A DNA stretch of 64,000 nt, taken from an uncultured Gammaproteobacteria bacterium (lineage in GTDB: Bacteria > Patescibacteriota > Microgenomatia > Levybacterales > GWA1-39-11). The stretch is taken from contig CAZVGS010000004.1 in NCBI GenBank assembly GCA_964627245.1, positions 22,806-86,805 of the forward strand. Direction: 5' to 3'. Shown here piece by piece: positions 12,736 through 49,691 of this stretch. The translations under genes were made by a program, and so were the position numbers. Under the pieces are notes generated by a model. It was not told where the DNA came from and searched no databases. It worked only from the letters and a program-made list of their open reading frames with translations. The number at the start of each line of letters is the position of its first letter. Positions within the stretch are counted from its first letter, which is position 1.

Positions 12736-13143
12736 ATGCGGATTTCCTGCCTAAACTGGGTTAAGGGGTATTGTGCCCAAATACTTTCGATGACTGCCTT
12801 TTTATATTACCCATTATTTCTAGTTGAATTCTGGTATAAAGACGTATTATTTGGTCTTATAAATTTTTTTGTCCGCTTTAACCGCTATGTAATTTCTCTA
12901 TTATCATTAGGTCTTTTAACAAGAACTTTTTTCAAGCCCTTAAAAAATGAATACAGAGAGGGCTTGGTTGTGTTCTCGATTTTTTTCGGAATGGCAATAA
13001 AGACGGTACTTATAAGTGTTTTATTAAGTATCGTTCTCATCTTTATTCTGATTGAGTGTTTGATAGTTGTATTGATAGCCTTTATCCCGGTAGCGCTTTT
13101 GTTTGTTGTATTGGGAAGCGATTCTCATGTTTGGTATGAATAA
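12736..13143 (+). CDS. small polytopic membrane protein (hypothetical); overlaps by 41 nt, in another frame, the hydrophobic N-terminus of the ClpC-like gene
   Basis: Three to four predicted TM helices. A long ORF in an AT-rich background. Whether it is a separate gene or a frameshift/fusion with 13103-15493 cannot be decided from sequence. Confidence 0.45.
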   Translation: MRISCLNWVKGYCAQILSMTAFLYYPLFLVEFWYKDVLFGLINFFVRFNRYVISLLSLGLLTRTFFKPLKNEYREGLVVFSIFFGMAIKTVLISVLLSIVLIFILIECLIVVLIAFIPVALLFVVLGSDSHVWYE

Positions 13144-15493
13144 ATATTATTTTCTATATTACTTTTTTGACAATCCGGTTATACGCTGGGTCAGGGTAGT
13201 AATTTTTCTTGGAGTTGGTTTGTTTGTTTACTTAAATCTTGAAAATCCCTTGCTTATTCTAAAATTATTGCCTGTGTATTTTGTTCTTATTCTTCAAGAA
13301 TTATTTATTCATTTCAAATTGGAGAATGCAAAGCCTCTTATGACAATCCATGATGATATAAATCATTCAATAGATACAGTCGAGTATAGAATGCGCTCTA
13401 TCCTTGAAAGAATAGACGACACTAAAAAGGTTATTCATGAAATTTCAGGTGACAGTGAAATTAAGTATTTATTAAGACTCTTAAATATAAATCCTGAAGT
13501 AACAGAAAACATTAATGAGGAAAATCTGCTTAGAAAAGCGTACACGTTAGTTATGAAAGTGGGAGGTAAGAATATCCACCCCATTGATATATTTGTTGCT
13601 TATTTAATTCTTCAGGATCAGATAACCAAGAATCTTTACAACAATGAAATAACCGAATTCGATGTGGTCACATTGCTTTCTTGGGTAAGAAGAAAATACA
13701 GAGTCGATATGCAAAAGCACGACGGGCTGCATTTCACAGGCAGCGGTGTTTTTGATTTTTTTGTATACGGCTGGAGCGCAGAGCTCTCGCGCTATGCTTC
13801 AAATTTCACAAGAGAAGTACTTTCTGGCAGACACCCAGAGCCTATCGGAAGAAATAGGGAATATGACCTTTTAGTAACTGCCTTATCCAAAAGTTCATCC
13901 AGTAACGCCTTGATTGTTGGTGAACCTGGAGTTGGAAAAACAACGCTTATATCCCAATTGGTTTTGGATTCAAATTTAGGCAATTTGCCCAATAAATTAT
14001 CAAACAAGATAGTTTTTAAATTTTCCCCTGAAAGATTACTTTCAGGTGTTAACAATCAAGGGGAGTTAGAGGAAAGATTAGTTAGTCTGATCTCTGAGTT
14101 ATATCATGCGGGGAATATTGTCGTTTACATTCCTAATATTGAAAATATTTTTGGCGGAGGAGGGCTTAGTATGGATTTGTCAGGTGCTTTAAGTGAATAC
14201 CTAAAAAGCAGTAGGATAAAAATAATTGGCAGTACAACTGAGGCATTTTATAAAGAATATATTTATCCAAAACAGGAATTAAAGGATCTATTTGATATAG
14301 TTGCGGTTAGAGAGCCAAATGAGGATGGTGCAATATTTATGCTTCTTGAGAAAGCTAATGAGATTGAGATGGAAAGTGGTGTCAAAATAAGCTTTGATGC
14401 AATAAAAAGCACATATTCATTGTCTGACTCATATATTAACGATGGAACGGTTCTTCCCGGGCGGGCAGTAAAACTTCTTGAGGATGTTGTGTCTTATGCA
14501 TCAATTCATGGAGACAGAAAAATAACAAAGAAAAATGTACAAAGCCTTGTTGAGGAAAAAACAAAAATTCTTCTGTCAGAACCGACTCAGGAAGAAAGTG
14601 AAGAACTTCTTAATCTTGAAACCGAACTTCATAAAGATGTTGTTTCTCAAAATGAAGCAATCAGTGCAATTGCCGATGCTATGAGAAGAATCAGAAGCGG
14701 AATTAGTAATGAAAAAAAACCGATTGCATCTTTTCTTTTTTTGGGTCCAACGGGTGTGGGTAAGACCGAAGCGGCGAAATCACTTGCCAAATCGTACTTT
14801 GGTGATGAAAAAAAAATGGTAAGGCTTGACATGACAGAATTTCAAAGTCCCGATTCGGCAAAAAGGTTAATTGAAGAAGGGGAAATATTTGTCGGCAAAG
14901 TTTTGGAAAACCCATTCACCGAGATACTTTTAGATGAATTTGAGAAAGCTGATCCGGATGTGCACAACCTGTTTCTTCAAATCCTTGATGAAGGGAGTAT
15001 GACCGATAGTTTGGGAAGGAGTATTTCATTTAAGAATTCAGTAATAATTGCTACTTCAAACGCCGGCAGTGAATTTATTAGAGAAACATACAGAAATTCA
15101 GCAGACCAGTTGGCATTTAAGGACAAACTAGTTGAAAAGATACTTAAAGATGGGATTTTCAGGCCAGAGCTTATTAACAGATTTGATGATGTAATTGCCT
15201 TCAAGCCACTTGAGAAAGAAGATGTCACAAAGGTTTCAAAGCTTTTCTTGGATGAGTTAGGCAGTAGGCTTTCTGAAAAACAAATAAACCTCTCTTATGA
15301 CGAAGCGGTGTGCGTATATATAGCTGAAAATGCTTACAGCATAGAATTTGGAGCAAGAAATATAAGAAGGTTTATCCAGCAATCCATAGAAAATCAAATT
15401 TCAAAGCTTATCCTTTCAAATGAGCTGAATAGTCAAGATACCGTGAAAATTTCAGTAGAGAATAACAGTCTTGTTATTGGTAAGCAAATTTAA
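13103..15493 (+). CDS. ClpC/ClpB-like double-ring AAA+ ATPase with hydrophobic (membrane-embedded?) N-terminal extension and degenerate D1 Walker B
   Basis: D1 Walker A IVGEPGVGKTTLISQL. D2 Walker A LFLGPTGVGKTEAAKSLA and Walker B ILLDEFEKADPDVHNLFLQILDEG. C-terminal ELINRFDDVIAFKPLEKEDV. The first ~75 codons are hydrophobic (2-3 TM) and the true start may be internal. The D1 region lacks an obvious hhhhDE Walker B. Confidence 0.8.
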   Translation: MLYWEAILMFGMNKYYFLYYFFDNPVIRWVRVVIFLGVGLFVYLNLENPLLILKLLPVYFVLILQELFIHFKLENAKPLMTIHDDINHSIDTVEYRMRSILERIDDTKKVIHEISGDSEIKYLLRLLNINPEVTENINEENLLRKAYTLVMKVGGKNIHPIDIFVAYLILQDQITKNLYNNEITEFDVVTLLSWVRRKYRVDMQKHDGLHFTGSGVFDFFVYGWSAELSRYASNFTREVLSGRHPEPIGRNREYDLLVTALSKSSSSNALIVGEPGVGKTTLISQLVLDSNLGNLPNKLSNKIVFKFSPERLLSGVNNQGELEERLVSLISELYHAGNIVVYIPNIENIFGGGGLSMDLSGALSEYLKSSRIKIIGSTTEAFYKEYIYPKQELKDLFDIVAVREPNEDGAIFMLLEKANEIEMESGVKISFDAIKSTYSLSDSYINDGTVLPGRAVKLLEDVVSYASIHGDRKITKKNVQSLVEEKTKILLSEPTQEESEELLNLETELHKDVVSQNEAISAIADAMRRIRSGISNEKKPIASFLFLGPTGVGKTEAAKSLAKSYFGDEKKMVRLDMTEFQSPDSAKRLIEEGEIFVGKVLENPFTEILLDEFEKADPDVHNLFLQILDEGSMTDSLGRSISFKNSVIIATSNAGSEFIRETYRNSADQLAFKDKLVEKILKDGIFRPELINRFDDVIAFKPLEKEDVTKVSKLFLDELGSRLSEKQINLSYDEAVCVYIAENAYSIEFGARNIRRFIQQSIENQISKLILSNELNSQDTVKISVENNSLVIGKQI

Positions 15494-39824: not shown

Positions 39825-41165
39825 ATGAATCCGAACATTACGCAGGAAATAAATCTTTTAAGAGAACTTCTAAATAGCCAAGGAGATCTTGGTATAGTTA
39901 TAGGATCACATCAAAATCTCGATACTTATGCCGCAGGACTTTCTTTGTACGCTTCTTTAAAAGCTTCCGGTAAAAAAGTACAGATCATCTCAAAAAAGGC
40001 TCCGACAGTTGAGGTAAGTAATCTTGTCGGAATAGACAAGGTTAGGGATAGTTTTGTTTCTGGAAATAATTCAAAACTCGTTATTTCCCTTCCTTATATT
40101 AAGGGTGAGGTTGAAAAAGTATTATTTACTGAATTCCCAAATCCTCAAAATCCTACAAATATTAATTTTCATTTGACCGCTGCTGAGGGAAAAAGTATAA
40201 CTCCATTTTCACTTTCAGATGTCAAGCTTCTATGGGAGGGAGGCGCCCCCGGAGCAGTTATCACAATTGGTGTTTCTTACATCGATGAATTGGCAGGAAT
40301 AGCTGATGATCCTCAAATAAAAATTGTTAATATTGATAATTTTTCTGGTAGCTCGCGGTTTGGTGATGTTGTTCTTGTTGATGAGTCTTTTTCTTCACTC
40401 TCTGAAGTATCTGCAAAAATCATAAAAGACTTGGCTTTGCCGGTTGATATCGATTCTGCACAAAATGTTTTGGACGGAGTACTTTTTGCAACAAGAAATT
40501 TCACAAAACCAAATACTTCTCCTTTAGCTTTTGAAGCAGCTTCGACTGCAATGTATAACGGTGCGCGGAGAAATGATGAAAAAGTGGATGTAAGACAGGA
40601 GCAAAGGCAAAATCCAAGACCCCAAAGGTACCAAGATAGGCAAGACGATCAAAGAGGAACTGTTCAGCAAAAGCAGCGAGTGGGAGATACTGATTTTCCT
40701 GCAATGCACATGCAGGGTTCAAGGAACCAGGGAGATGATAGAAGACAAAGAAATCAGCAGAGGGGACAGGAAGAAAGGGGCAGAAGACCTCAAAATCAGC
40801 CTCAAACTAGACAATTTCAAGACAGAAGCCAAAGACCCCAGCAGGCTTTTGGGCAAAACCCTAAAGATATCGAGGAATTGATGAGAAAGATAAATGAGGA
40901 AAATATGAAGAAACAACAACCAAGAAGAGATGATAGACAGCAACCTGTAAGAGTGCAAGAGGATGTAAGGGAAGATGAATTTGAGGAAAAGCAAAATGAA
41001 TTTACAAATCCTCAGATCCAAGATGCTCAAATTGTGGATGACAGAAGACAGGTCCAAGATGACTTTGAGCCTGAGCAAGCACCCTACACTCCTCCGGATC
41101 CGTCAGAAGTGCCTGATGACTGGTTGACCCCAAAAGTCTTCAAAAGCTCCAAAAGGAATAATTAG
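39825..41165 (+). CDS. DHH-family (NrnA-like) phosphoesterase homologue with degenerate DHH motifs and ~190-aa Arg/Gln/Asp-rich disordered tail
   Basis: IVIGSHQNLDTYAAGLSLYASL aligns to the NrnA HxNPDGDAxGS motif, but the Asp residues are replaced. Positioned where rbfA-neighbouring nrnA sits in other bacteria. Tail RQEQRQNPRPQRYQDRQDDQRG... Confidence 0.5.
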   Translation: MNPNITQEINLLRELLNSQGDLGIVIGSHQNLDTYAAGLSLYASLKASGKKVQIISKKAPTVEVSNLVGIDKVRDSFVSGNNSKLVISLPYIKGEVEKVLFTEFPNPQNPTNINFHLTAAEGKSITPFSLSDVKLLWEGGAPGAVITIGVSYIDELAGIADDPQIKIVNIDNFSGSSRFGDVVLVDESFSSLSEVSAKIIKDLALPVDIDSAQNVLDGVLFATRNFTKPNTSPLAFEAASTAMYNGARRNDEKVDVRQEQRQNPRPQRYQDRQDDQRGTVQQKQRVGDTDFPAMHMQGSRNQGDDRRQRNQQRGQEERGRRPQNQPQTRQFQDRSQRPQQAFGQNPKDIEELMRKINEENMKKQQPRRDDRQQPVRVQEDVREDEFEEKQNEFTNPQIQDAQIVDDRRQVQDDFEPEQAPYTPPDPSEVPDDWLTPKVFKSSKRNN

Positions 41166-41658: not shown

Positions 41659-44049
41659 ATGAAAAAAGTTTCAAAATCTTTTGAATTGAGAGGAAAGAAT
41701 ATTTCTTTCGAGACAGGAACGCTTGCGTCCTTGTCTACATCCAGTGTTTTGGCACGGATGGGAGATACTGTAGTTCTTGCAACTGTTACCATGGGCAGGA
41801 ATGATACTACATTGGACTACTTCCCTCTTTCAGTTGAGTATGTGGAGCATCTGTATGCCGGCGGAAAAATAAAAGGATCCCGTTGGGTTAAGCGTGAAGG
41901 AAGACCGTCCGATGACTCAATTCTAACCGGAAGACTTATCGACCGCTCAATACGCCCTCTATTTCCCAAAGAACTTAAAAAAGACATTCAAGTGATAGTT
42001 AACGTTTTATCTTCAGACGGGGTGAATGATGCGGATATTCTGTCAATTAATGCAGTAAGCGCAGCCCTTGCCGCTTCAAAAATTCCATGGAACGGACCTG
42101 TTGGAGCTTCAAGAATTGGTCTTAACCGCGAAACACAAGAATTGGCTGTAAATCCTGAAATGGCAACGGAGATAGACTTGGATTTTGTTTTGACAGCATC
42201 TGCTAATGGAAATACCGTTATGGTTGAGGCAGGAGCAAACCAGGTTGGAGAAGACATTGCCCTGCAAGCAGTGAAAATGGCAAAAGAGGCAAATTCGGAG
42301 ATGATTGAATTTATTAACGCTTTTGCAAAAGAAGTAGGAGAGAAAAAAGATGAAGTTGTAAAAGACGAGGAAAAATCCAAATACGTTGCTCTGGTAGATA
42401 AATCTTACAAGAAAAACATAGTAGATGTTTTGGAAGGTGAATTGGGAGAAAATGTGTCAGGTGATCTTCAAAAAATTGCCGATCTAATTGCAGAAGAAGA
42501 AAGCAAAAAGGCAAAACAAGGAGAAACAGTCGACAAGAAAAAGATATTTGAAGCAGTTGACTATGTATTCAAAAGAATAATCCGCGAGAATATTGTTGAC
42601 AAAGAAAAAAGATTTGACGGGCGAAAAATTGATGAGATAAGACCTCTTTCTTCTCAGGTTAGTTTTATTCCAAGAGTTCATGGATCGGCACTTTTCCAAC
42701 GCGGACAAACACAAGTTTTATCCATTGCAACTCTTGCGTCTAGTTCATTCGGACAGCTCATTGAGACGCTTGAAGGCGAGGAAACAAAGCGTTACATGCA
42801 TCACTACACTTTTCCTCCTTTCTCAGTAGGTGAGACGGGAAGAATAGGCAGTCCTTCAAGACGCGAAATCGGACACGGAGCGCTAGCTGAAAGGGCTATT
42901 GAAGCAGTACTTCCTACAGCCGAGGAATTCCCTTACGCAATAAGAGTAGTGAGTGAGGTTTTGTCTTCAAACGGCTCAACTTCAATGGCTTCAACCTGCG
43001 GATCAACTTTGGCACTTATGGATGCCGGAGTTCCGATAAAAGCACCTGTTGCAGGAATTGCAATCGGGCTCATGACTTTGGACAAAAAGTACAAGATTTT
43101 GACAGACATTATTGGTCTTGAAGACTTTGCAGGAGATATGGACTTTAAGGTTGCTGGAACAGAAAAAGGCATTACGGCCATTCAATTAGACGTTAAGGTT
43201 GATGCTTTGACTGATGAGATGATTGCTGAAGTTTTTGACCGCGCTCGCAAGGCAAGAATGGAAATTCTAAAAGTCATGCTAAAAGCACTTCCTGAGTCAA
43301 GAGCCGAAGTAAGCAGTTTTGCTCCAAAGATAAAGATGATAAAGATTGATCCTGAAAAAATAGGCGGAGTTATTGGATCAGGCGGAAAAGTTATTAAAAA
43401 TATTATTGCTATGACAGGTGCTCAGGTTGATGTTGAGGACGACGGATCTGTAAGTATATCGGCAGTTGATGATGAAGCTGTTAAGAAAGCTGTTGAATGG
43501 GTTGAGGGATTGACTCATGATGTTGAGCCCGGTGAAGTTTATGACGGAACGGTTAAGAGAATGATGAATTTTGGAGCATTTGTTGAGATATTACCAGGAA
43601 AAGAAGGACTTGTTCATGTATCCGAGATGTCAACTGACTATGTCCAGTCACCTGAGGATGTTGTTGAGATAGGACAAAAAGTAAAAGTAAGGGTTAAGGA
43701 AATTGATGATATGGGAAGAATTAATTTATCTATGAAATTTGGAGAGGATGCAGACAAACCATCTAAAAGACCGGAAGGGTCTGAGGGCGGAAATGGAGAT
43801 AGAGGAGGACGCGGAGGAGACAGAGGTCCAAGAGGCGGCGGCGGAAGACCCGGCGGAGGGTTTTCGCGGGGAGGACCCCCAAGAAGCGGTGGAGGCGGAT
43901 TTTCCAGAGGCGGAGGGCCTAGGCGTGATTTTGGTGGAGGACAGAGACCTTCAAGCGTTGGAAGAAGTTTTGGCGGAGGAAGAAGAAGCAGCGGAATTGA
44001 TAAAAAACCAACCTACGAAGGCGGACGGCGCGACGACTGGAGAGGTTAG
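41659..44049 (+). CDS. pnp: polynucleotide phosphorylase (PNPase) with ~90-aa C-terminal Arg/Gly-rich (RGG/FSRGG) tail
   Basis: Two RNase PH domains, KH and S1 domains. After the S1 domain comes GNGDRGGRGGDRGPRGGGGRPGGGFSRGGPPRSGGGGFSRGGGPRRDFGGG... Confidence 0.9.
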   Translation: MKKVSKSFELRGKNISFETGTLASLSTSSVLARMGDTVVLATVTMGRNDTTLDYFPLSVEYVEHLYAGGKIKGSRWVKREGRPSDDSILTGRLIDRSIRPLFPKELKKDIQVIVNVLSSDGVNDADILSINAVSAALAASKIPWNGPVGASRIGLNRETQELAVNPEMATEIDLDFVLTASANGNTVMVEAGANQVGEDIALQAVKMAKEANSEMIEFINAFAKEVGEKKDEVVKDEEKSKYVALVDKSYKKNIVDVLEGELGENVSGDLQKIADLIAEEESKKAKQGETVDKKKIFEAVDYVFKRIIRENIVDKEKRFDGRKIDEIRPLSSQVSFIPRVHGSALFQRGQTQVLSIATLASSSFGQLIETLEGEETKRYMHHYTFPPFSVGETGRIGSPSRREIGHGALAERAIEAVLPTAEEFPYAIRVVSEVLSSNGSTSMASTCGSTLALMDAGVPIKAPVAGIAIGLMTLDKKYKILTDIIGLEDFAGDMDFKVAGTEKGITAIQLDVKVDALTDEMIAEVFDRARKARMEILKVMLKALPESRAEVSSFAPKIKMIKIDPEKIGGVIGSGGKVIKNIIAMTGAQVDVEDDGSVSISAVDDEAVKKAVEWVEGLTHDVEPGEVYDGTVKRMMNFGAFVEILPGKEGLVHVSEMSTDYVQSPEDVVEIGQKVKVRVKEIDDMGRINLSMKFGEDADKPSKRPEGSEGGNGDRGGRGGDRGPRGGGGRPGGGFSRGGPPRSGGGGFSRGGGPRRDFGGGQRPSSVGRSFGGGRRSSGIDKKPTYEGGRRDDWRG

Positions 44050-44085: not shown

Positions 44086-44916
44086 TTAAGAATTCCCAAG
44101 TAGATAGCAAGCACTCTCCATTACTCTGTTAAATTTTCCATTGAATTCCTTAATAGTATCCCAATATGGCTTTCGGGTTGCCTGATCCATTATTAGTCCC
44201 CTGTTATATTCAATTTGAATTCCGACGACTTCGTTTCCGAAGTTGTTTTTAGGATTTGTATAATTTTGCATTATAAACCCTCCTTTATATGATGTGTTGA
44301 TTTCGACTTCATCAAGCTCTAGACTGAATTCTTTTGCGATATTTGATCTTACATTTTGAATAAATTCTGCAGAGCACGAGGCATATCCATTTGCAGGATC
44401 AACTCCTCCTGTTATTGACTTACCAAAGTTTGAAAGAATAAATTTCGGCATGGTTCTATTCTCCCCTGGTAATTTTCTATCCCTTTTGCCTGTTTTTAAG
44501 TTAAAATCTCCCGTATCGTGCTGATCCCAAAGAATGACCTTGTCAAAACCCTTCTCCTTTGAACTTTTTATCAAGCGTCTTATCTCATCATGATAAGGAT
44601 CCCAGTATGTCTTAAAACAGTATTCTTTCTCATCATCTGTTAATTCCTGACCTTTTTTCCATATAGCATTTCCATGGAAATCATTGAGCTTGAATAAAGA
44701 AGAATCCCTTGGCTGGTTGAGACTGCCAAGCCCTCGGATTGCTAGAGACTTTAAGTTGCCCAAAGCTTCGGGATGATATGAGGTATCAGCGGTATACATA
44801 TCCGTAAATTCACCAATATACCATGGATCCAAAATTATCCGGTCTGCAAAATTATGAAAGTCATCGCTATTGTGAGGCGCAGAAGTAATAAGAGGTAAAA
44901 CCATAATTGGCTTCAT
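44086..44916 (-). CDS. N-formylglutamate amidohydrolase-like (FGase family) zinc hydrolase, putative
   Basis: The N-terminal LPLITSAPHNS segment resembles the FGase hExxH-containing metal-binding start. Weak, from memory. Confidence 0.35.
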   Translation of the reverse strand: MKPIMVLPLITSAPHNSDDFHNFADRIILDPWYIGEFTDMYTADTSYHPEALGNLKSLAIRGLGSLNQPRDSSLFKLNDFHGNAIWKKGQELTDDEKEYCFKTYWDPYHDEIRRLIKSSKEKGFDKVILWDQHDTGDFNLKTGKRDRKLPGENRTMPKFILSNFGKSITGGVDPANGYASCSAEFIQNVRSNIAKEFSLELDEVEINTSYKGGFIMQNYTNPKNNFGNEVVGIQIEYNRGLIMDQATRKPYWDTIKEFNGKFNRVMESACYLLGNS

Positions 44917-44976: not shown

Positions 44977-46113
44977 ATGGATTCTGCCCAGAAAACAGTA
45001 GATGGTAGTCAGGAGTTAGGAGCTGGAAACAATAACTCTCAAAACCCGGATTCTAATTCCCAAATTTCAAAACTTGAGACTTTGATAGTCAACGCAAAGT
45101 TACCTGAGGATTTAAATCAATCTGCAAAAGCGATGGTAGCTCGCCTCAAGATTGTAAAAGATCAACCCTCTTTTTATACAGAATATGACACTATTTCAAG
45201 ATATGTCACTTGGATAACAGCGCTTCCCTGGGGAAAAAAGTCCGAAGATATTTTAGATCTTTCACATGCCAAGCAGGTTTTGGATCACAATCACTACGGC
45301 CTTGAGGTTGTAAAAGAGCAGATTTTAGAATTCTTATCAATTATGATTTTGACAAAAGCCCGCGCCGGTCAGCAGGGAAGTGATATCATTGCAAGGGCTC
45401 CGATACTGTCTCTTGTGGGTCTTGCGGGGGTCGGTAAAACAACGATTGCATATTCAATTGCTGAGGCTTTGGGCAGGAAAATTGAAAGAATCCCATTTGG
45501 TGGAATGGGTAGCGCAAGCCAACTAAGAGGCAAATCCAGACTTTATTCAGATAGCGAACCCGGTTATGTGATAAAAGCCCTAAGACGAGCAGGTACTTCA
45601 AATCCGGTTATATTACTCGATGAAATAGATAGAGTTAGTGAGGAAGCAAGAGCAGATATTATGGGTGTGTTGGTAGAACTTCTGGATCCTTTGCAGAATA
45701 AAGCATTCACAGACCACTTCATAGACTATCCGGTAGATCTTTCACAAGTACTTTTTATTGCTACTTCAAATAATACCAAAGACATTTCAACCGCTGTTGT
45801 TGATAGGCTGGAGATAATCCAAATGCCATCATATACCGATGATGAAAAAACGGTTATTGGTAAGACTTATGTACTGCCAAAGGTAATGAAAGAGTCAGGT
45901 TTGACGCCCAACGAATTTGCTATAGCTGATGATGTTTGGCCTGAAGCAATAGTTAGGCCTTTGGGATACGACCCGGGAATAAGAGGTTTGCAGCGCGTTT
46001 TGCAGGGGATTGTTAGAAAAACCGTATACTACATGATGATCGGTAAAATTCCCCAAGGACAGAGATTTGTTGTGACCAATGAGAATGTAAAGAATTTTGT
46101 TTCGGCGTGGTAG
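44977..46113 (+). CDS. Lon-like AAA+ ATPase module without N-terminal LAN domain and without S16 peptidase domain
   Basis: Colinear with Lon: LVGLAGVGKTTIAYSIAEALGRK..RIPFGGMG..QLRGKSRLYSDSEPGYVIKALRRAGTSNPVILLDEIDRV...LDPLQNKAFTDHFIDYPVDLSQVLFIATSNN...VDRLEIIQMPSYTDDEK. The ORF ends after the alpha-helical lid. Confidence 0.75.
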   Translation: MDSAQKTVDGSQELGAGNNNSQNPDSNSQISKLETLIVNAKLPEDLNQSAKAMVARLKIVKDQPSFYTEYDTISRYVTWITALPWGKKSEDILDLSHAKQVLDHNHYGLEVVKEQILEFLSIMILTKARAGQQGSDIIARAPILSLVGLAGVGKTTIAYSIAEALGRKIERIPFGGMGSASQLRGKSRLYSDSEPGYVIKALRRAGTSNPVILLDEIDRVSEEARADIMGVLVELLDPLQNKAFTDHFIDYPVDLSQVLFIATSNNTKDISTAVVDRLEIIQMPSYTDDEKTVIGKTYVLPKVMKESGLTPNEFAIADDVWPEAIVRPLGYDPGIRGLQRVLQGIVRKTVYYMMIGKIPQGQRFVVTNENVKNFVSAW

Positions 46114-46240
46114 GTGGCGGGTCCTGTCTCAGCCCGTCCCATTTGCGCGCCGTCTCGCCCGCTCTGCTTACAAAAAAATATTGTTCGTTTGCTCGAGATG
46201 TTCAATGGGACCCTGGACTGAGCCACCCGCATTGGTTTTG
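46114..46240 (+). ncRNA. GC-rich structured element (candidate small RNA, rnj leader element or strong terminator) between Lon-like gene and rnj
   Basis: About 65% GC in a ~37% GC genome. 5' GGTGGCGGGTCC pairs with 3' GGGACCC...GCCACC. The interior is AT-rich. No convincing ORF. Confidence 0.35.
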
Positions 46241-46280
46241 AGATTTGAGTTGTGAGTTTTATGCAATATAATTAAGTCAA

Positions 46281-47960
46281 ATGGAAAGTAATAATAATGC
46301 AAGTCCGCTTAACTCCGTAACGGTTCTGCCGTTAGGAGGTATAGGGTCGGTTACCAAGAATATGTATTTATATATTTTTGGCAACGAAATACTAATCGTC
46401 GATTGTGGAATGGGTTTTCCCGATGCCAATACACCCGGTGTAGACTTTCTAATTCCTGACATAACGCATCTTAAGAAATTGGTTACGCAAGGCAAAAAAA
46501 TTGTGGGTCTTTTACTTACTCACGGGCACGAAGATCATATAGGAGGCGTTCCTTTCGTTCTTGACCAGCTCCCAAGTTTTCCTATATATGCAACCCCCCT
46601 GACAGCGGCATTTACAAATGAAAAATTGAAAGATTTTGGGCTTAATCAGCGGGTTGTTGAGGTTAAATTCAAGAAGGATTTTAGGCTTGGTGCATTTATG
46701 GTCCGATTTTTGCATATCACGCATAGTGTCATGGATACTTCAAATATTTTTATAAAAACCCCTGTTGGTAACTTTTATCACGGCAGTGACTATAAATTTG
46801 ACCTAACACCTCCCGATGATAAGCCGACAGATATGCATGGGATAGCAGAAACAGCACGAGAGGGAGTAATGTGCATGATGTCTGACTGCCTGGGAGCAGA
46901 ACGCGAAGGGCATAGTAAATCCGAGCGAAAAATTACCGATAAATTTGAAGAAGAGATGAGAAGGTCTAAGGGAAAGGTTTTTATAAGTACCTATTCTTCA
47001 AATATTTCACGCATGAACCAAGCCATCGAGGCCGCAATAAAATTTAATAGAAAAGTGTGCTTTATGGGAAGATCTTTTGCAAAGGCGAGGGATATCGGTA
47101 GGCAATTGGGGTATATGAAACTGCCTCAAAATATGGAAATAAAGTCCCAGCAGGCAGGATCAATGGATCCGTCAAAAGTAATGATCTTAATTCCCGGGAG
47201 TCAGGCACAAGAAGAGTCTGCTCTTGTCAGAGTTGCAAATGATAATGACCGGGATCTTAGAATTGAGAAAAACGACACTGTTATTTTTTCAGCGGATCCA
47301 ATACCCGGGAATGAAGTAAATATTTATAGTCTGATTGATACTATTTCAAAAAAAGGCGCCCGTGTTATACATTCCGACATGTCAGATGAATTTCATGTGT
47401 CAGGTCATGGATCTCAAAATGACATAAAACTTCTTGCAACTTTGACAAGACCAAGATACGCATTTCCAATAGGCGGAAATTACCGTCACATGCTGGCGTT
47501 CAAAGGATTGATGAGGGACCTTGGAATGCGTGAGCAGGATATAGTTCTTCCTGAATACGGACAGGAAGTCGTTTTTTTCAAAGGCTCTTTCCGCTATGGA
47601 GCAAAAATTCCTTTGGCAACTGTTTATGTAGATGAGATAACAGGCGAGGAGATGGAAAAATTTGTGCTTTTGGACCGCCAAAAGATAGTAAAAGAAGGAA
47701 TAATGATAATTATGGTTGAGGTAGAGGCTGATAGTGGAAAGATTGTTGAGAAGCCTGATGTTATTGTCAGAGGCGTTGCTTTTCCCGAGAAGGATGGGTT
47801 TGTTGAAAAGTTGGGTAGTGAGTTGAGCCGAAGCATGTCTCAAAAGAGTGGTAGGGCCAATTCTGCTCTTTACAGAAAGACTATCCAAAGAACGGCAGAA
47901 AATCTTTTGTACAAAATGAAGCGCGAACCCCTAGTTATCCCTGTTGTTATTGAAGTGTAG
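46281..47960 (+). CDS. rnj: ribonuclease J (metallo-beta-lactamase / beta-CASP RNase)
   Basis: LLTHGHEDHIGGVPF motif. Beta-CASP motifs. C-terminal domain. 559 aa. Confidence 0.9.
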   Translation: MESNNNASPLNSVTVLPLGGIGSVTKNMYLYIFGNEILIVDCGMGFPDANTPGVDFLIPDITHLKKLVTQGKKIVGLLLTHGHEDHIGGVPFVLDQLPSFPIYATPLTAAFTNEKLKDFGLNQRVVEVKFKKDFRLGAFMVRFLHITHSVMDTSNIFIKTPVGNFYHGSDYKFDLTPPDDKPTDMHGIAETAREGVMCMMSDCLGAEREGHSKSERKITDKFEEEMRRSKGKVFISTYSSNISRMNQAIEAAIKFNRKVCFMGRSFAKARDIGRQLGYMKLPQNMEIKSQQAGSMDPSKVMILIPGSQAQEESALVRVANDNDRDLRIEKNDTVIFSADPIPGNEVNIYSLIDTISKKGARVIHSDMSDEFHVSGHGSQNDIKLLATLTRPRYAFPIGGNYRHMLAFKGLMRDLGMREQDIVLPEYGQEVVFFKGSFRYGAKIPLATVYVDEITGEEMEKFVLLDRQKIVKEGIMIIMVEVEADSGKIVEKPDVIVRGVAFPEKDGFVEKLGSELSRSMSQKSGRANSALYRKTIQRTAENLLYKMKREPLVIPVVIEV

Positions 47961-49317
47961 GCTTTTGGTGCTACAATTTCTCAAAGTGGTAGAAATTGAA
48001 GTCGAAAACATGAGGCATTCGGATGCACTTTCCGCGGAATACCTCTCCTCTAGAAGAATCCGAGTTTCTCTTAATGTTTTTGGAGCATTGCATGCGGGAA
48101 TTCCAGGTCCCGACCTGAAAGAAACTGTTGGAAATTCTACTTCAGTCTCTTTTGAATTACCATCAATTGTTGTTGCCTCTTTTCAAGAAGGAGAGATGAC
48201 TCAGGCGGATAACAATCCCTTTTGGAGAGATCTTTTGTCACTTAATGAAAACGCTGTTGGAGTAAATGATAATAGACCAGCAACTATCGGTATTCGAGTT
48301 GTGGATGATAGAGTCAAAAAAGAACACACTGTGCCGAGAAATTTTCCGGATACTGTTGTAAGCAGTAGGGCCTTAGCAGCCAGAGACATCGCAAGGGGAA
48401 CAATTACATCTAGTGAGTTTATAGATCAACTTAGGGTTCAGGATAAAGGGTTTGGGCAAGCATACCCTTCGAGAGCCTATCTTATGGAAGATGGAAAGGA
48501 ATTTTATGTCAATGTTAACCGTCCAATTGAAAATGATTTATTGTCAGCCCTTTATGTAAGCGGGAGATATATGCTACCTGTTGAATATTATTTGACTCGC
48601 GGCGAGGAAATTTTTGGAAGTAATATCGGTGGTTTGCATGGCATAGAGATTGCGCAAATTGCGATGAGTCATCTGATACGAACCCAGGTAGATAGGGTAC
48701 AAATAAAATCTATGCTTAAGAATCTTCGAAGGGTTGTACGAGACACGCAGGATGGAGGTCATGTAGTGCATACACATGTAGGAGGAGCGACTCACAATCT
48801 CAACCTCTTATCCATTTTAGAAAACGTGGTTGGAGAAAACGCGCAAATACAAATTCATGACCTGCGAGATAGTAGAATGCCAGATCTGGTGCCTGATAGA
48901 CTTACCATTTTTGAAAGGTACGCAAAGGCAAAAGACGTATTGGATGCAGTAAAAATAATTGACGGTCAGGTTCTTGTTGATGTTGAAAGCACCGACAGAA
49001 TCTTAAAACAGGTTGTGTCTGATAATTTTGATGTATTGATGGCTTTTGGTGAAAGGGAATTAGCTGCCAGAGATTATGAAACAGCAGTCCCAAAGTCTGA
49101 TAACAGCGCCGAGATCGAGTATTTTGTAATACGCTCACTTTTATGGATGATAGATCCGGAAGACATTCGATTAATTGGAAAAGTAGACAGAGAATATCCG
49201 GAAAAACTAGCAGCATTTATTTTAAGAAAACATCCGGATAAAAAAGAAAAAGTCATTGAAACCATGACGAAATATGTATCAAGACAAAGCAATTTTCCAC
49301 TAGATGATAGTGAGTAG
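47944..49317 (+). CDS. hypothetical protein (compositionally atypical, Arg/Val/Asp/Gly-rich); probable start at 48010
   Basis: Long ORF with visibly higher GC and different amino-acid usage than its neighbours. No motif recognised. Confidence 0.5.
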   Translation: MLLKCRLLVLQFLKVVEIEVENMRHSDALSAEYLSSRRIRVSLNVFGALHAGIPGPDLKETVGNSTSVSFELPSIVVASFQEGEMTQADNNPFWRDLLSLNENAVGVNDNRPATIGIRVVDDRVKKEHTVPRNFPDTVVSSRALAARDIARGTITSSEFIDQLRVQDKGFGQAYPSRAYLMEDGKEFYVNVNRPIENDLLSALYVSGRYMLPVEYYLTRGEEIFGSNIGGLHGIEIAQIAMSHLIRTQVDRVQIKSMLKNLRRVVRDTQDGGHVVHTHVGGATHNLNLLSILENVVGENAQIQIHDLRDSRMPDLVPDRLTIFERYAKAKDVLDAVKIIDGQVLVDVESTDRILKQVVSDNFDVLMAFGERELAARDYETAVPKSDNSAEIEYFVIRSLLWMIDPEDIRLIGKVDREYPEKLAAFILRKHPDKKEKVIETMTKYVSRQSNFPLDDSE

Positions 49318-49340: not shown

Positions 49341-49691
49341 TTAACCTCTGAATTTGGATCTAATTCCTTGAATGACCGCATCTGCTTTTGCCTTAAATCT
49401 CGCGTTAGAAAAAGAACCGTTTACCTCACTCATCATCTCTCGCCATAGTGCACTTCCTCCCGCATCTTGCGGACGTGCTATTTTTTCTTTTAAAAAATTA
49501 AGGTCCTCTTGGGAAAGCTCGAGAACAGGATTGTCAGGAAGATTTTCGTGATCTTCAAATTGGTCAAGCATGGCGCCCATGAGTTTTCCAATTCTTGAAG
49601 AGCTGTGAAATTTTGAAAGTCCTTTGAAGGATCCATCTTGTCTTAGTGCATCCAATTCTGCTTGGTACGAAGGCCGTAGGCCTTCTGCCAA
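49341..49691 (-). CDS. hypothetical protein (116 aa), convergent partner in the same atypical-composition island
   Basis: ORF with elevated GC. No recognisable domain. Confidence 0.4.
   Translation of the reverse strand: MAEGLRPSYQAELDALRQDGSFKGLSKFHSSSRIGKLMGAMLDQFEDHENLPDNPVLELSQEDLNFLKEKIARPQDAGGSALWREMMSEVNGSFSNARFKAKADAVIQGIRSKFRG

Follow-up and report, generated by a model that had tools for sequence, protein, structure and literature searches.

A conserved family of stand-alone LonA-type AAA+ modules without substrate-recognition and protease domains in Patescibacteria

In the published classification, all Lon proteins are single chains in which an ATPase (A) domain is followed by a protease (P) domain (PMC9569914). 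Our interest here is a gene for a stand-alone LonA-type AAA+ ATPase, located on the plus strand at 44977..46113 of a 64,000-nucleotide stretch of contig CAZVGS010000004.1 (assembly GCA_964627245.1, positions 22,806 to 86,805), which is referred to below as the window. The gene has an ATG start and encodes 378 amino acids (aa) followed by a stop codon (46111-46113). It belongs to a LonA-derived family in which neither the LAN domain for substrate recognition nor the S16 protease domain has survived. The literature that we searched contains no account of a natural Lon homologue without both the N-terminal (N) and the P domains, and a paper on a complete Microgenomates genome makes no mention of Lon.

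The closest described protein is LonA itself (TIGR00763; MEROPS S16), with Meiothermus taiwanensis LonA (MtaLonA) and E. coli Lon as references. Its helical bundle, AAA+ domain and lid are colinear with those of the family at ~36-43% identity, and the two groups share the Walker A and Walker B motifs, sensor 1, the Arg finger (Arg484) and sensor 2 (Arg541). What sets the family apart from LonA is the lack of the LAN domain, of the long coiled-coil and of the S16 protease domain with its Ser-Lys dyad. Differences are also found within the shared module. Walker A reads GL[AVQ]G in the family and GPPG in LonA, the LonA pore loop 1 motif TY[VI]GAM is replaced by x-x-[PS]-[DE]-[AS]-E, and both the pore-loop-2 aromatic and the acidic cluster RDEAE, which lies ahead of pore loop 1 in LonA, are lost.

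The E. coli Lon fragment EcLon(235-584) (PDB 6n2i) has equal content, namely the C-terminal three-helix bundle of the HI(CC) domain (LonA nomenclature after PMC6722904) together with the nucleotide-binding (NB) and helical (H) domains, and its crystals display an open helical hexamer packing (PMC6722904). That fragment was made in the laboratory by cutting down a protease. The family gene, by contrast, occurs in nature, evolves on its own, encodes rebuilt pore loops and has gained a disordered tail at the N-terminus. LonC (MtaLonC; MEROPS S16.007), for which a chaperone function has been reported (PMC13069640, PMC9569914), is likewise a Lon derivative minus one enzymatic activity. It is the mirror image of the family, as LonC combines a live protease with a dead ATPase whereas the family has an apparently live ATPase and no protease. 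Work on mitochondrial LONP1 describes an anti-aggregation, chaperone-like activity that needs the ATPase but not the protease (PMC8368198), and two papers show that a Lon AAA+ ring, by hydrolysing ATP and without proteolysis, is able to keep proteins from aggregating or to help them fold (PMC8368198, PMC7801493). LONP1, however, has the complete N-A-P architecture and canonical pore loops, and its chaperone role is one activity of a protease rather than a separate protein. ClpB/Hsp104 and other HCLR-clade remodellers are AAA+ rings that perform ATP-driven remodelling with no attached or docked protease, and the helical HI(CC) domain of LonA resembles the H1/M region of ClpB (PMC6722904). ClpB differs from the family in its two AAA+ modules and its conserved pore-loop tyrosines.

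Domain architecture, ATPase site and pore loops

The product of the open reading frame (ORF) at 44977-46113 is identical to P0001 in the public protein collection. Of the 795 positions of the NCBIfam profile TIGR00763 ('endopeptidase La'), it matched 248-565 with an E-value of 7e-93, and its 312.5 bits fall far under the curated full-length cutoff of 608 bits. The protein is colinear with residues 240-561 of the 793-residue MtaLonA. Further matches were to human LONP1, B. subtilis Lon (3m6a) and 6n2i; E-values against solved Lon structures ran from 1e-58 to 1e-72, and those for MtaLonA and 6n2i were ~1e-68 to 1e-72. Query residues 24-358 align to residues 8-324 of the 6n2i chain. A Pfam scan of the protein returned AAA (PF00004) at residues 146-282 (E 4e-18) and a weak, sub-threshold match to Lon_lid (PF22667) at residues 305-357, and found neither LON_substr_bdg (PF02190) nor Lon_C (PF05362). 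An AlphaFold2 model built from a 50-sequence alignment had a mean predicted local distance difference test score (pLDDT) of 79 and a predicted template modelling score of 0.73. The model is laid out as a disordered tail (1-23), a five-helix bundle (26-130), an alpha/beta domain (143-282), a lid (288-354) and a short C-terminal strand, and the 50 best-listed PDB fold matches returned for it by Foldseek were all LonA or LONP1. Thus, a LonA-type AAA+ module preceded by the HI(CC) three-helix bundle was found in the alignment to LonA 240-561, in the match to 6n2i and in the fold comparison. The first-pass annotation, made from the sequence alone, had described the ORF as a Lon ATPase core without LAN or S16 domains, and the profile, structure and window searches bear this out. 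Colinearity with Lon up to the lid was also correctly recognized. The match does not start at Walker A as had been proposed, however, but at residue ~24, ~110 residues earlier, so that it includes the helical bundle.

The individual segments of the protein, all on the plus strand, can be placed as follows. The N-terminal tail (residues 1-23; 44977..45045) is disordered and of low complexity, with pLDDT <50, and starts with M-D-x-A-Q. The helical bundle (residues 26-130; 45052..45366) corresponds in the MtaLonA alignment to the C-terminal part of the LonA HI(CC)/three-helix-bundle region, approximately LonA 245-345, and its modelled helices span residues 26-39, 44-59, 66-82, 95-105 and 110-130 at pLDDT ~79-95. 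The AAA+ alpha/beta, or nucleotide-binding, domain (residues 143-282; 45403..45822) is identified by PF00004, the model and the fold matches. The alpha-helical lid, or H domain (residues 285-357; 45829..46047), is identified by the weak PF22667 match and by matches to the isolated Lon alpha-domains 1qzm and 1x37. The C-terminal tail (residues 358-378; 46048..46110) ends in N-V-K-N-F-V-S-A-W and matches the first part of the LonA A-P linker; the protein terminates ~20 residues past the lid.

The missing domains were sought in the surrounding DNA as well. When 10 full-length LonA proteins, divided into their N, A and P parts, were compared with the 64-kb window by tblastn, the A part alone was matched in any frame, with no P-domain match at E<0.8 and no N-domain match at E<0.1. 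Hidden Markov models (HMMs) for the N domain and for the P domain were trained on 56 LonA sequences, and they detected both domains in 27/27 canonical lon loci used as a positive control. The same models found neither domain in the window nor within 10 kb in 62 short-form loci. The absence of S16 from a total of ~1 Mb of flanking sequence is weak evidence against an S16 domain elsewhere in these ~0.8-Mb genomes. Downstream of the gene, the 167-nt spacer had been measured correctly (the RNase J gene starts at 46281), and it holds no peptidase coding signal. The window protein should not be filed as a Lon protease because three defining LonA features fail: it lacks the LAN and S16 domains and scores below the TIGR00763 cutoff. 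Current database labels are 'ATP-dependent Lon protease' (JGI), which is misleading for family members, and 'AAA family ATPase' (NCBI), which is uninformative.

The ATPase site is retained in full. Invariance was judged over 23 diverse family members of 36-88% identity. In Walker A, G148-L-A-G-V-G-K154-T155 (45418..45441; G-P-P-G-V-G-K-T in LonA), residues G148, G151, G153, K154 and T155 are invariant, as are D215 and E216 in Walker B, V211-I-L-L-D215-E216-I-D218 (45607..45630). Sensor 1, N265 (45769..45771), is invariant in both the family and LonA. The Arg finger R277 (45805..45807), which acts in trans and aligns to MtaLonA Arg484, and the lid residue sensor 2, R336 (45982-45984), which aligns to MtaLonA Arg541, are invariant too; all of these lie on the plus strand. 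The hallmarks of the AAA+ superfamily (Walker A GxxGxGK[ST], Walker B hhhhDE, sensor 1 Asn, trans Arg finger and sensor 2 Arg) are therefore all present, and every residue needed for ATP binding and hydrolysis is invariant in the family. Further family signatures are RIPFGGMG, ADIMGVL, QMPSY, W321 and RPLGYDxGIR.

The pore loops have been rebuilt. In MtaLonA, Tyr397 of pore loop 1 and Trp431 of pore loop 2 grip the substrate and are needed for degradation (PMC8503904). Among 72 LonA sequences, pore loop 1 reads G-H-R-R-T-Y(98%)-[VI]-G-A-[ML]-P-G, while the family motif is G-x-[ST]-[RK]-x-x-[PSA]-[DE]-[AS]-E-P-G. The corresponding plus-strand segment of the window protein, R184-G-K-S-R-L-Y190-S-D192-S-E194-P-G196 (45526..45564), retains a tyrosine, Y190, in line with Tyr397 and in the context Y-S-D-S-E. 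Across the 133 members with the motif, this position is occupied by F (53), Y (40), S (15), M (7), T (7), N (4), H (2), R (2) and single E, Q and D residues. The GTDB representatives often have H, R, Q, K or L here, and N occurs among them as well. The net charge of the segment is +0.6 in the family versus +3.8 in LonA. The new motif is strongly conserved (D192 86%, E194 86%, P195 95%, G196 95%), which indicates that pore loop 1 is still constrained, though for a different contact. In pore loop 2, R219-V-S-E-E-A224-R-A-D-I-M-G-V231 (45631..45669, plus strand), A224 aligns to Trp431. The family has A in 52%, S in 17% and L in 17% at this position where LonA has F, Y or H (W in MtaLonA), and carries a one-residue insertion in the loop. 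The Tyr397/Trp431 pair of gripping aromatics is accordingly not a property of the family. The first-pass annotation had proposed a proteolytically dead unfoldase or chaperone. The lack of a protease stands, but the term unfoldase is not secure given these rebuilt substrate-gripping loops, and as the aromatic paddles are not conserved we do not commit to processive unfolding.

Both termini carry conserved elements. Among 118 family proteins, 103 start with 'MD', typically M-D-x-A-Q, and this tip (within 44977-45069 in the window) is followed by a low-complexity linker whose length varies from ~0 to >300 residues, with a conserved LPW motif lying 30-380 residues from the N-terminus. The combination of a conserved tip and a variable linker suggests a tethered short linear motif. 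At the other end, 106/118 close family members end in W and 36/63 locus ORFs end in W or Y; the C-terminal motif N-[VIL]-K-x-[FY]-[VIL]-P-x-[WY] aligns to the start of the LonA A-P linker. An interpretation of the terminal Trp as a protease-docking motif comparable to HbYX or the HslU tail was considered and not adopted, in view of that alignment and of the lack of conservation in deeper branches.

Conservation and origin of the short form

The stand-alone family was defined as proteins of 340-510 aa that consist of the helical bundle, AAA+ domain and lid only and carry the sequence signatures RIPFGG, [DE]-[AS]-E-P-G, ADIMGVL and RPLG[YF]D.G[IV]R. At least 120 homologue clusters were listed at 64-100% identity to the window protein, all of 324-477 aa and all without a precomputed Lon N or C domain; their named sources are Candidatus Levybacteria or the Patescibacteria group. 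A representative library clustered at 50% identity added remoter stand-alone forms at 40-53% identity, two of them from Dojkabacteria. The truncated form is also conserved in relatives across GTDB species representatives, a scan of which yielded 54 short-form loci with complete ORFs of 341-472 aa, down to ~41% identity. Informative titles among these are Levy-, Shapiro-, Ames-, Roizman-, Davies-, Gottesman-, Woese-, Pace- and Nomurabacteria and 'Patescibacteria group'. Matches at <=42% identity from other phyla in the same scan were full N-A-P Lon proteins of 770-860 aa, with the exception of an N-less 614-aa ORF in L065. Altogether, assemblies from NCBI, JGI, ENA and Logan supply >170 independent sequences in which the short-form boundaries are conserved.

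Many loci (L009, L011, L014, L018-L022, L037 and others) are titled 'uncultured Gammaproteobacteria', 'Pseudomonadales' or 'Candidatus Methanoperedens sp.'. Such titles look unreliable because the contigs bear the Patescibacteria-type gene along with nusA-infB-rpsO-pnp-X-rnj-ftsK synteny. Record titles were not used for taxonomy where they conflict with this synteny.

Simple neighbour-joining trees of AAA+ modules were built on p-distance-derived distances, with ORFs in fetched loci called mechanically. In the first tree, 23/24 stand-alone modules formed one clade with no canonical Lon inside (bootstrap 90/100), and in a larger tree of 253 modules, 75/76 did so (bootstrap 79/100). The window protein carries all family signatures and falls within this clade. 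The sole outlier in the trees, P0175, has LonA motifs of the canonical type and then runs on into non-Lon sequence, which fits a degraded, frameshifted Lon fragment. When the window gene was compared with five relatives, the proportion of nonsynonymous differences (pN) was 0.10-0.26 versus 0.76-0.85 (saturated) for synonymous differences (pS), and the gene is under strong purifying selection. Of the two origins proposed in the first-pass annotation, a domesticated stand-alone module had been favoured, and it is supported by the architecture in at least 120 clusters and 54 GTDB loci, by the separate clade and by selection. The identity of the family is solid.

The collection also contains, outside the window, Lon-like proteins of 900-3,800 aa (P0121-P0170) with two or three tandem Lon-type AAA+ modules before S16. 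Two of these are ordered AAA-P-AAA-P, an unusual Lon architecture; P0121 comes from Candidatus Dependentiae and P0142 from Elusimicrobiota.

Candidate functions and genomic context

The explanation that we favour, at a probability of roughly 0.55, is that these proteins are functional, Lon-derived, ring-forming, ATP-driven remodellers or chaperones that act without proteolysis, and that they make up a conserved Patescibacteria family found mainly in Microgenomates-type lineages. The Lon-like protein would assemble into a ring, since the invariant Arg finger acts in trans and serves a purpose in oligomers alone, and since EcLon(235-584) packs as an open helical hexamer. ATP hydrolysis would then allow client proteins to be bound, held or remodelled in a chaperone-like manner without degradation. 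Clients would be contacted by a mode other than the Tyr/Trp 'paddle' threading of Lon, and the disordered N-terminal tail with its MDxAQ tip may stand in for LAN as a tether or recognition element. A divergent groES-groEL pair, confirmed by Pfam, is a second recurrent context of the gene (6-7 loci) and was counted in favour of a chaperone function. Several points weigh on the other side. ATPase activity, ring formation and client binding are each predicted from sequence for every family member. The canonical Lon hexamer is also supported by its P-domain ring. The variable aromatic in pore loop 1 and the absent aromatic in pore loop 2 make classical threading unfolding doubtful. Lastly, the commonest neighbours of the gene are the RNA-decay genes pnp and rnj and not chaperones.

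Neighbours were counted over 60 non-redundant loci. PNPase (pnp) is encoded directly upstream on the same strand in 28/60 and within two genes in 33/60, with rpsO preceding it in 24/60. RNase J (rnj) is the first gene downstream in 23/60 loci and the second in 9/60, a ~200-aa gene follows in 15/60 (one such gene, when scanned, proved to be UDG-family), and ftsK follows in 10/60. The block nusA-infB-x-rpsO-pnp-[Lon-AAA]-rnj-ftsK is retained down to ~45% identity (L053, L055), with spacers that are often 2-100 bp. In Dojkabacteria and other deep members the gene is located elsewhere, and in other lineages it adjoins groESL, PfkB or UDG genes or sits elsewhere. In the window, pnp (41659..44049) and rnj (46281..47960; Pfam RNase_J_b_CASP and RNase_J_C) are on the plus strand, and an FGase-like gene (N-formylglutamate-amidohydrolase-like, PF05013) on the minus strand at 44086-44916 lies between pnp and the Lon-like gene. 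This slot varies, as relatives differ in what it holds: it is empty, contains an acyltransferase-3 gene (L001) or contains both genes (L089).

These counts bear on the strongest competing explanation, which assigns the protein to the RNA-decay machinery as an accessory ATPase. Transcribed together with pnp and rnj, it would remodel or regulate PNPase and/or RNase J, or act on ribonucleoproteins. The pnp-X-rnj order with its short spacers, kept to ~45% identity, argues for such a role, with RNase J counted among the first two downstream genes in 31/60 loci, and one route would be for an acidic pore to engage the Arg/Gly-rich basic C-terminal tail of PNPase. The adjacency may, however, be inherited synteny, as the gene sits inside a long conserved housekeeping block, and other lineages place it by groESL, PfkB or UDG genes or elsewhere. 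In the window itself, the minus-strand FGase gene breaks the link to pnp and rnj has its own promoter-like site (46245-46272). The Pfam scan of the 378-aa protein also revealed no RNA-binding domain. On balance, we consider an RNA-decay function rather unlikely.

The PNPase tail deserves description in its own right. The C-terminal ~104 aa of the window PNPase (~43732-44046) form an Arg/Gly-rich (RGG-like), basic, disordered tail, and nearly all PNPases of loci L001-L062 have an R/G-rich tail of 40-110 aa with a net charge of +5 to +13. Such a tail is unusual for a bacterial PNPase, and pnp lies directly upstream of the gene for the acidic-pore AAA+ protein. The basic PNPase tail and the predicted acidic pore of the Lon-like protein together make an attractive lead.

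A still less probable explanation is a two-component protease, a 'split Lon' resembling HslU-HslV or ClpX-ClpP, of which the protein would be the ATPase half, docking on a separately encoded peptidase (for instance S16-only, ClpP/SppA-class or M16) and passing substrates to it. Many AAA+ unfoldases pair with separate peptidases (PMC6722904), and the conserved C-terminus with its mostly aromatic end (W or Y) is compatible with docking; in isolated loci, peptidase genes also occur nearby, with M16 twice and M23 once in L006 and SDH_protease/NfeD in L001-L003. Nevertheless, no peptidase family recurred among the two neighbours on each side in the 60 loci, and no S16 domain was found within 10 kb in 62 loci. 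The C-terminal motif may be a mere remnant, since it lines up with the beginning of the LonA A-P linker, and the degenerate pore-loop aromatics speak against processive translocation into a chamber.

A bolder proposal, which we regard as a long shot, is that Microgenomates-type Patescibacteria have replaced canonical Lon with a protease-less motor whose acidic pore engages Arg/Gly-rich tails such as that of PNPase, and that this motor serves as an ATP-dependent regulator or assembly factor of RNA decay within a pnp-X-rnj operon. If true, Lon would have given rise to a new functional class.

The two remaining explanations have next to no probability. Recent 3' and 5' truncation of lon, giving a pseudogene or an assembly artefact, was the other origin raised in the first-pass annotation and has in its favour only the bare architecture, a Lon AAA+ module minus its flanking domains; it is refuted by the same boundaries in >170 independent sequences, purifying selection, invariant catalytic motifs and the distinct clade, outside which falls P0175, the one truly degraded Lon fragment in the set. 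Descent from another family with Lon-like domains (RadA/Sms, ComM/Mg-chelatase, BREX BrxL, LonB or LonC) rather than from LonA has nothing to recommend it past generic AAA+ similarity, as PADLOC matches (DolB, TRIP13 and others) had E-values of 2e-8 or weaker and covered the P-loop core only, whereas the best profile and structure matches are all to LonA/LONP1 and span the whole module, LonA-specific helical bundle included, at E 1e-60 to 1e-93. The earlier suggestion of a RadA/Sms or ComM/Mg-chelatase relative in particular fails, with no RadA, ComM, ChlI or Mg-chelatase match in Pfam or NCBIfam at E<=1. A defence role such as that of BREX BrxL was also rejected, since PADLOC gave weak generic AAA matches and the context is one of housekeeping genes (nusA, infB, rpsO, pnp, rnj, ftsK). 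LonB/LonBA, as defined in PMC9569914, was rejected because neither the model nor the alignments contain a hydrophobic membrane-anchor insertion and there is no S16 domain.

Other features of the window and significance of the family

The spacer between the Lon-like gene and rnj contains a GC-rich, imperfect long hairpin of ~120 nt (46117-46236) in a genome of ~39% GC. Rfam gave no match in the whole window at the gathering threshold or in the spacer region 46050-46330 at E<=10. Compared with shuffled sequences, the fold had a z of 0.13 on the plus strand and of -1.98 (marginal) on the minus strand. There is no second copy in the window, and the hairpin is not found in the equivalent spacers of the closest relatives, L091 and L089. 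It looks like a lineage-specific insertion.

Upstream, a 446-aa plus-strand ORF (39825-41165; 'X446') between infB and rpsO is conserved in most related loci. It has a long R/Q/D/E-rich low-complexity C-terminal half and no Pfam match at E<=0.001. Downstream, a 457-aa plus-strand ORF with a TTG start (47944-49317) shares its first nucleotides with the end of rnj and is followed on the minus strand by a 116-aa ORF (49341-49691); neither has a Pfam match, and L001-L003 carry an SDH_protease/NfeD-like gene at their position instead. A 796-aa ClpB/ClpC-type AAA+ protein with AAA_2 and ClpB_D2-small domains is encoded on the plus strand at 13103-15493, and the genome thus has at least one other HCLR-clade unfoldase.

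The LonA motor alone has been kept for a long time, at within-family identities down to ~40% and across many candidate phyla of ultra-small bacteria, and the family therefore amounts to a natural separation-of-function experiment. It could reveal what the Lon AAA+ ring does without proteolysis, a role that is debated for LONP1 and for bacterial Lon, and how far pore loops can change while the ATPase site is kept. It could also inform how proteostasis or RNA decay is organised in the reduced genomes of the candidate phyla radiation (CPR).

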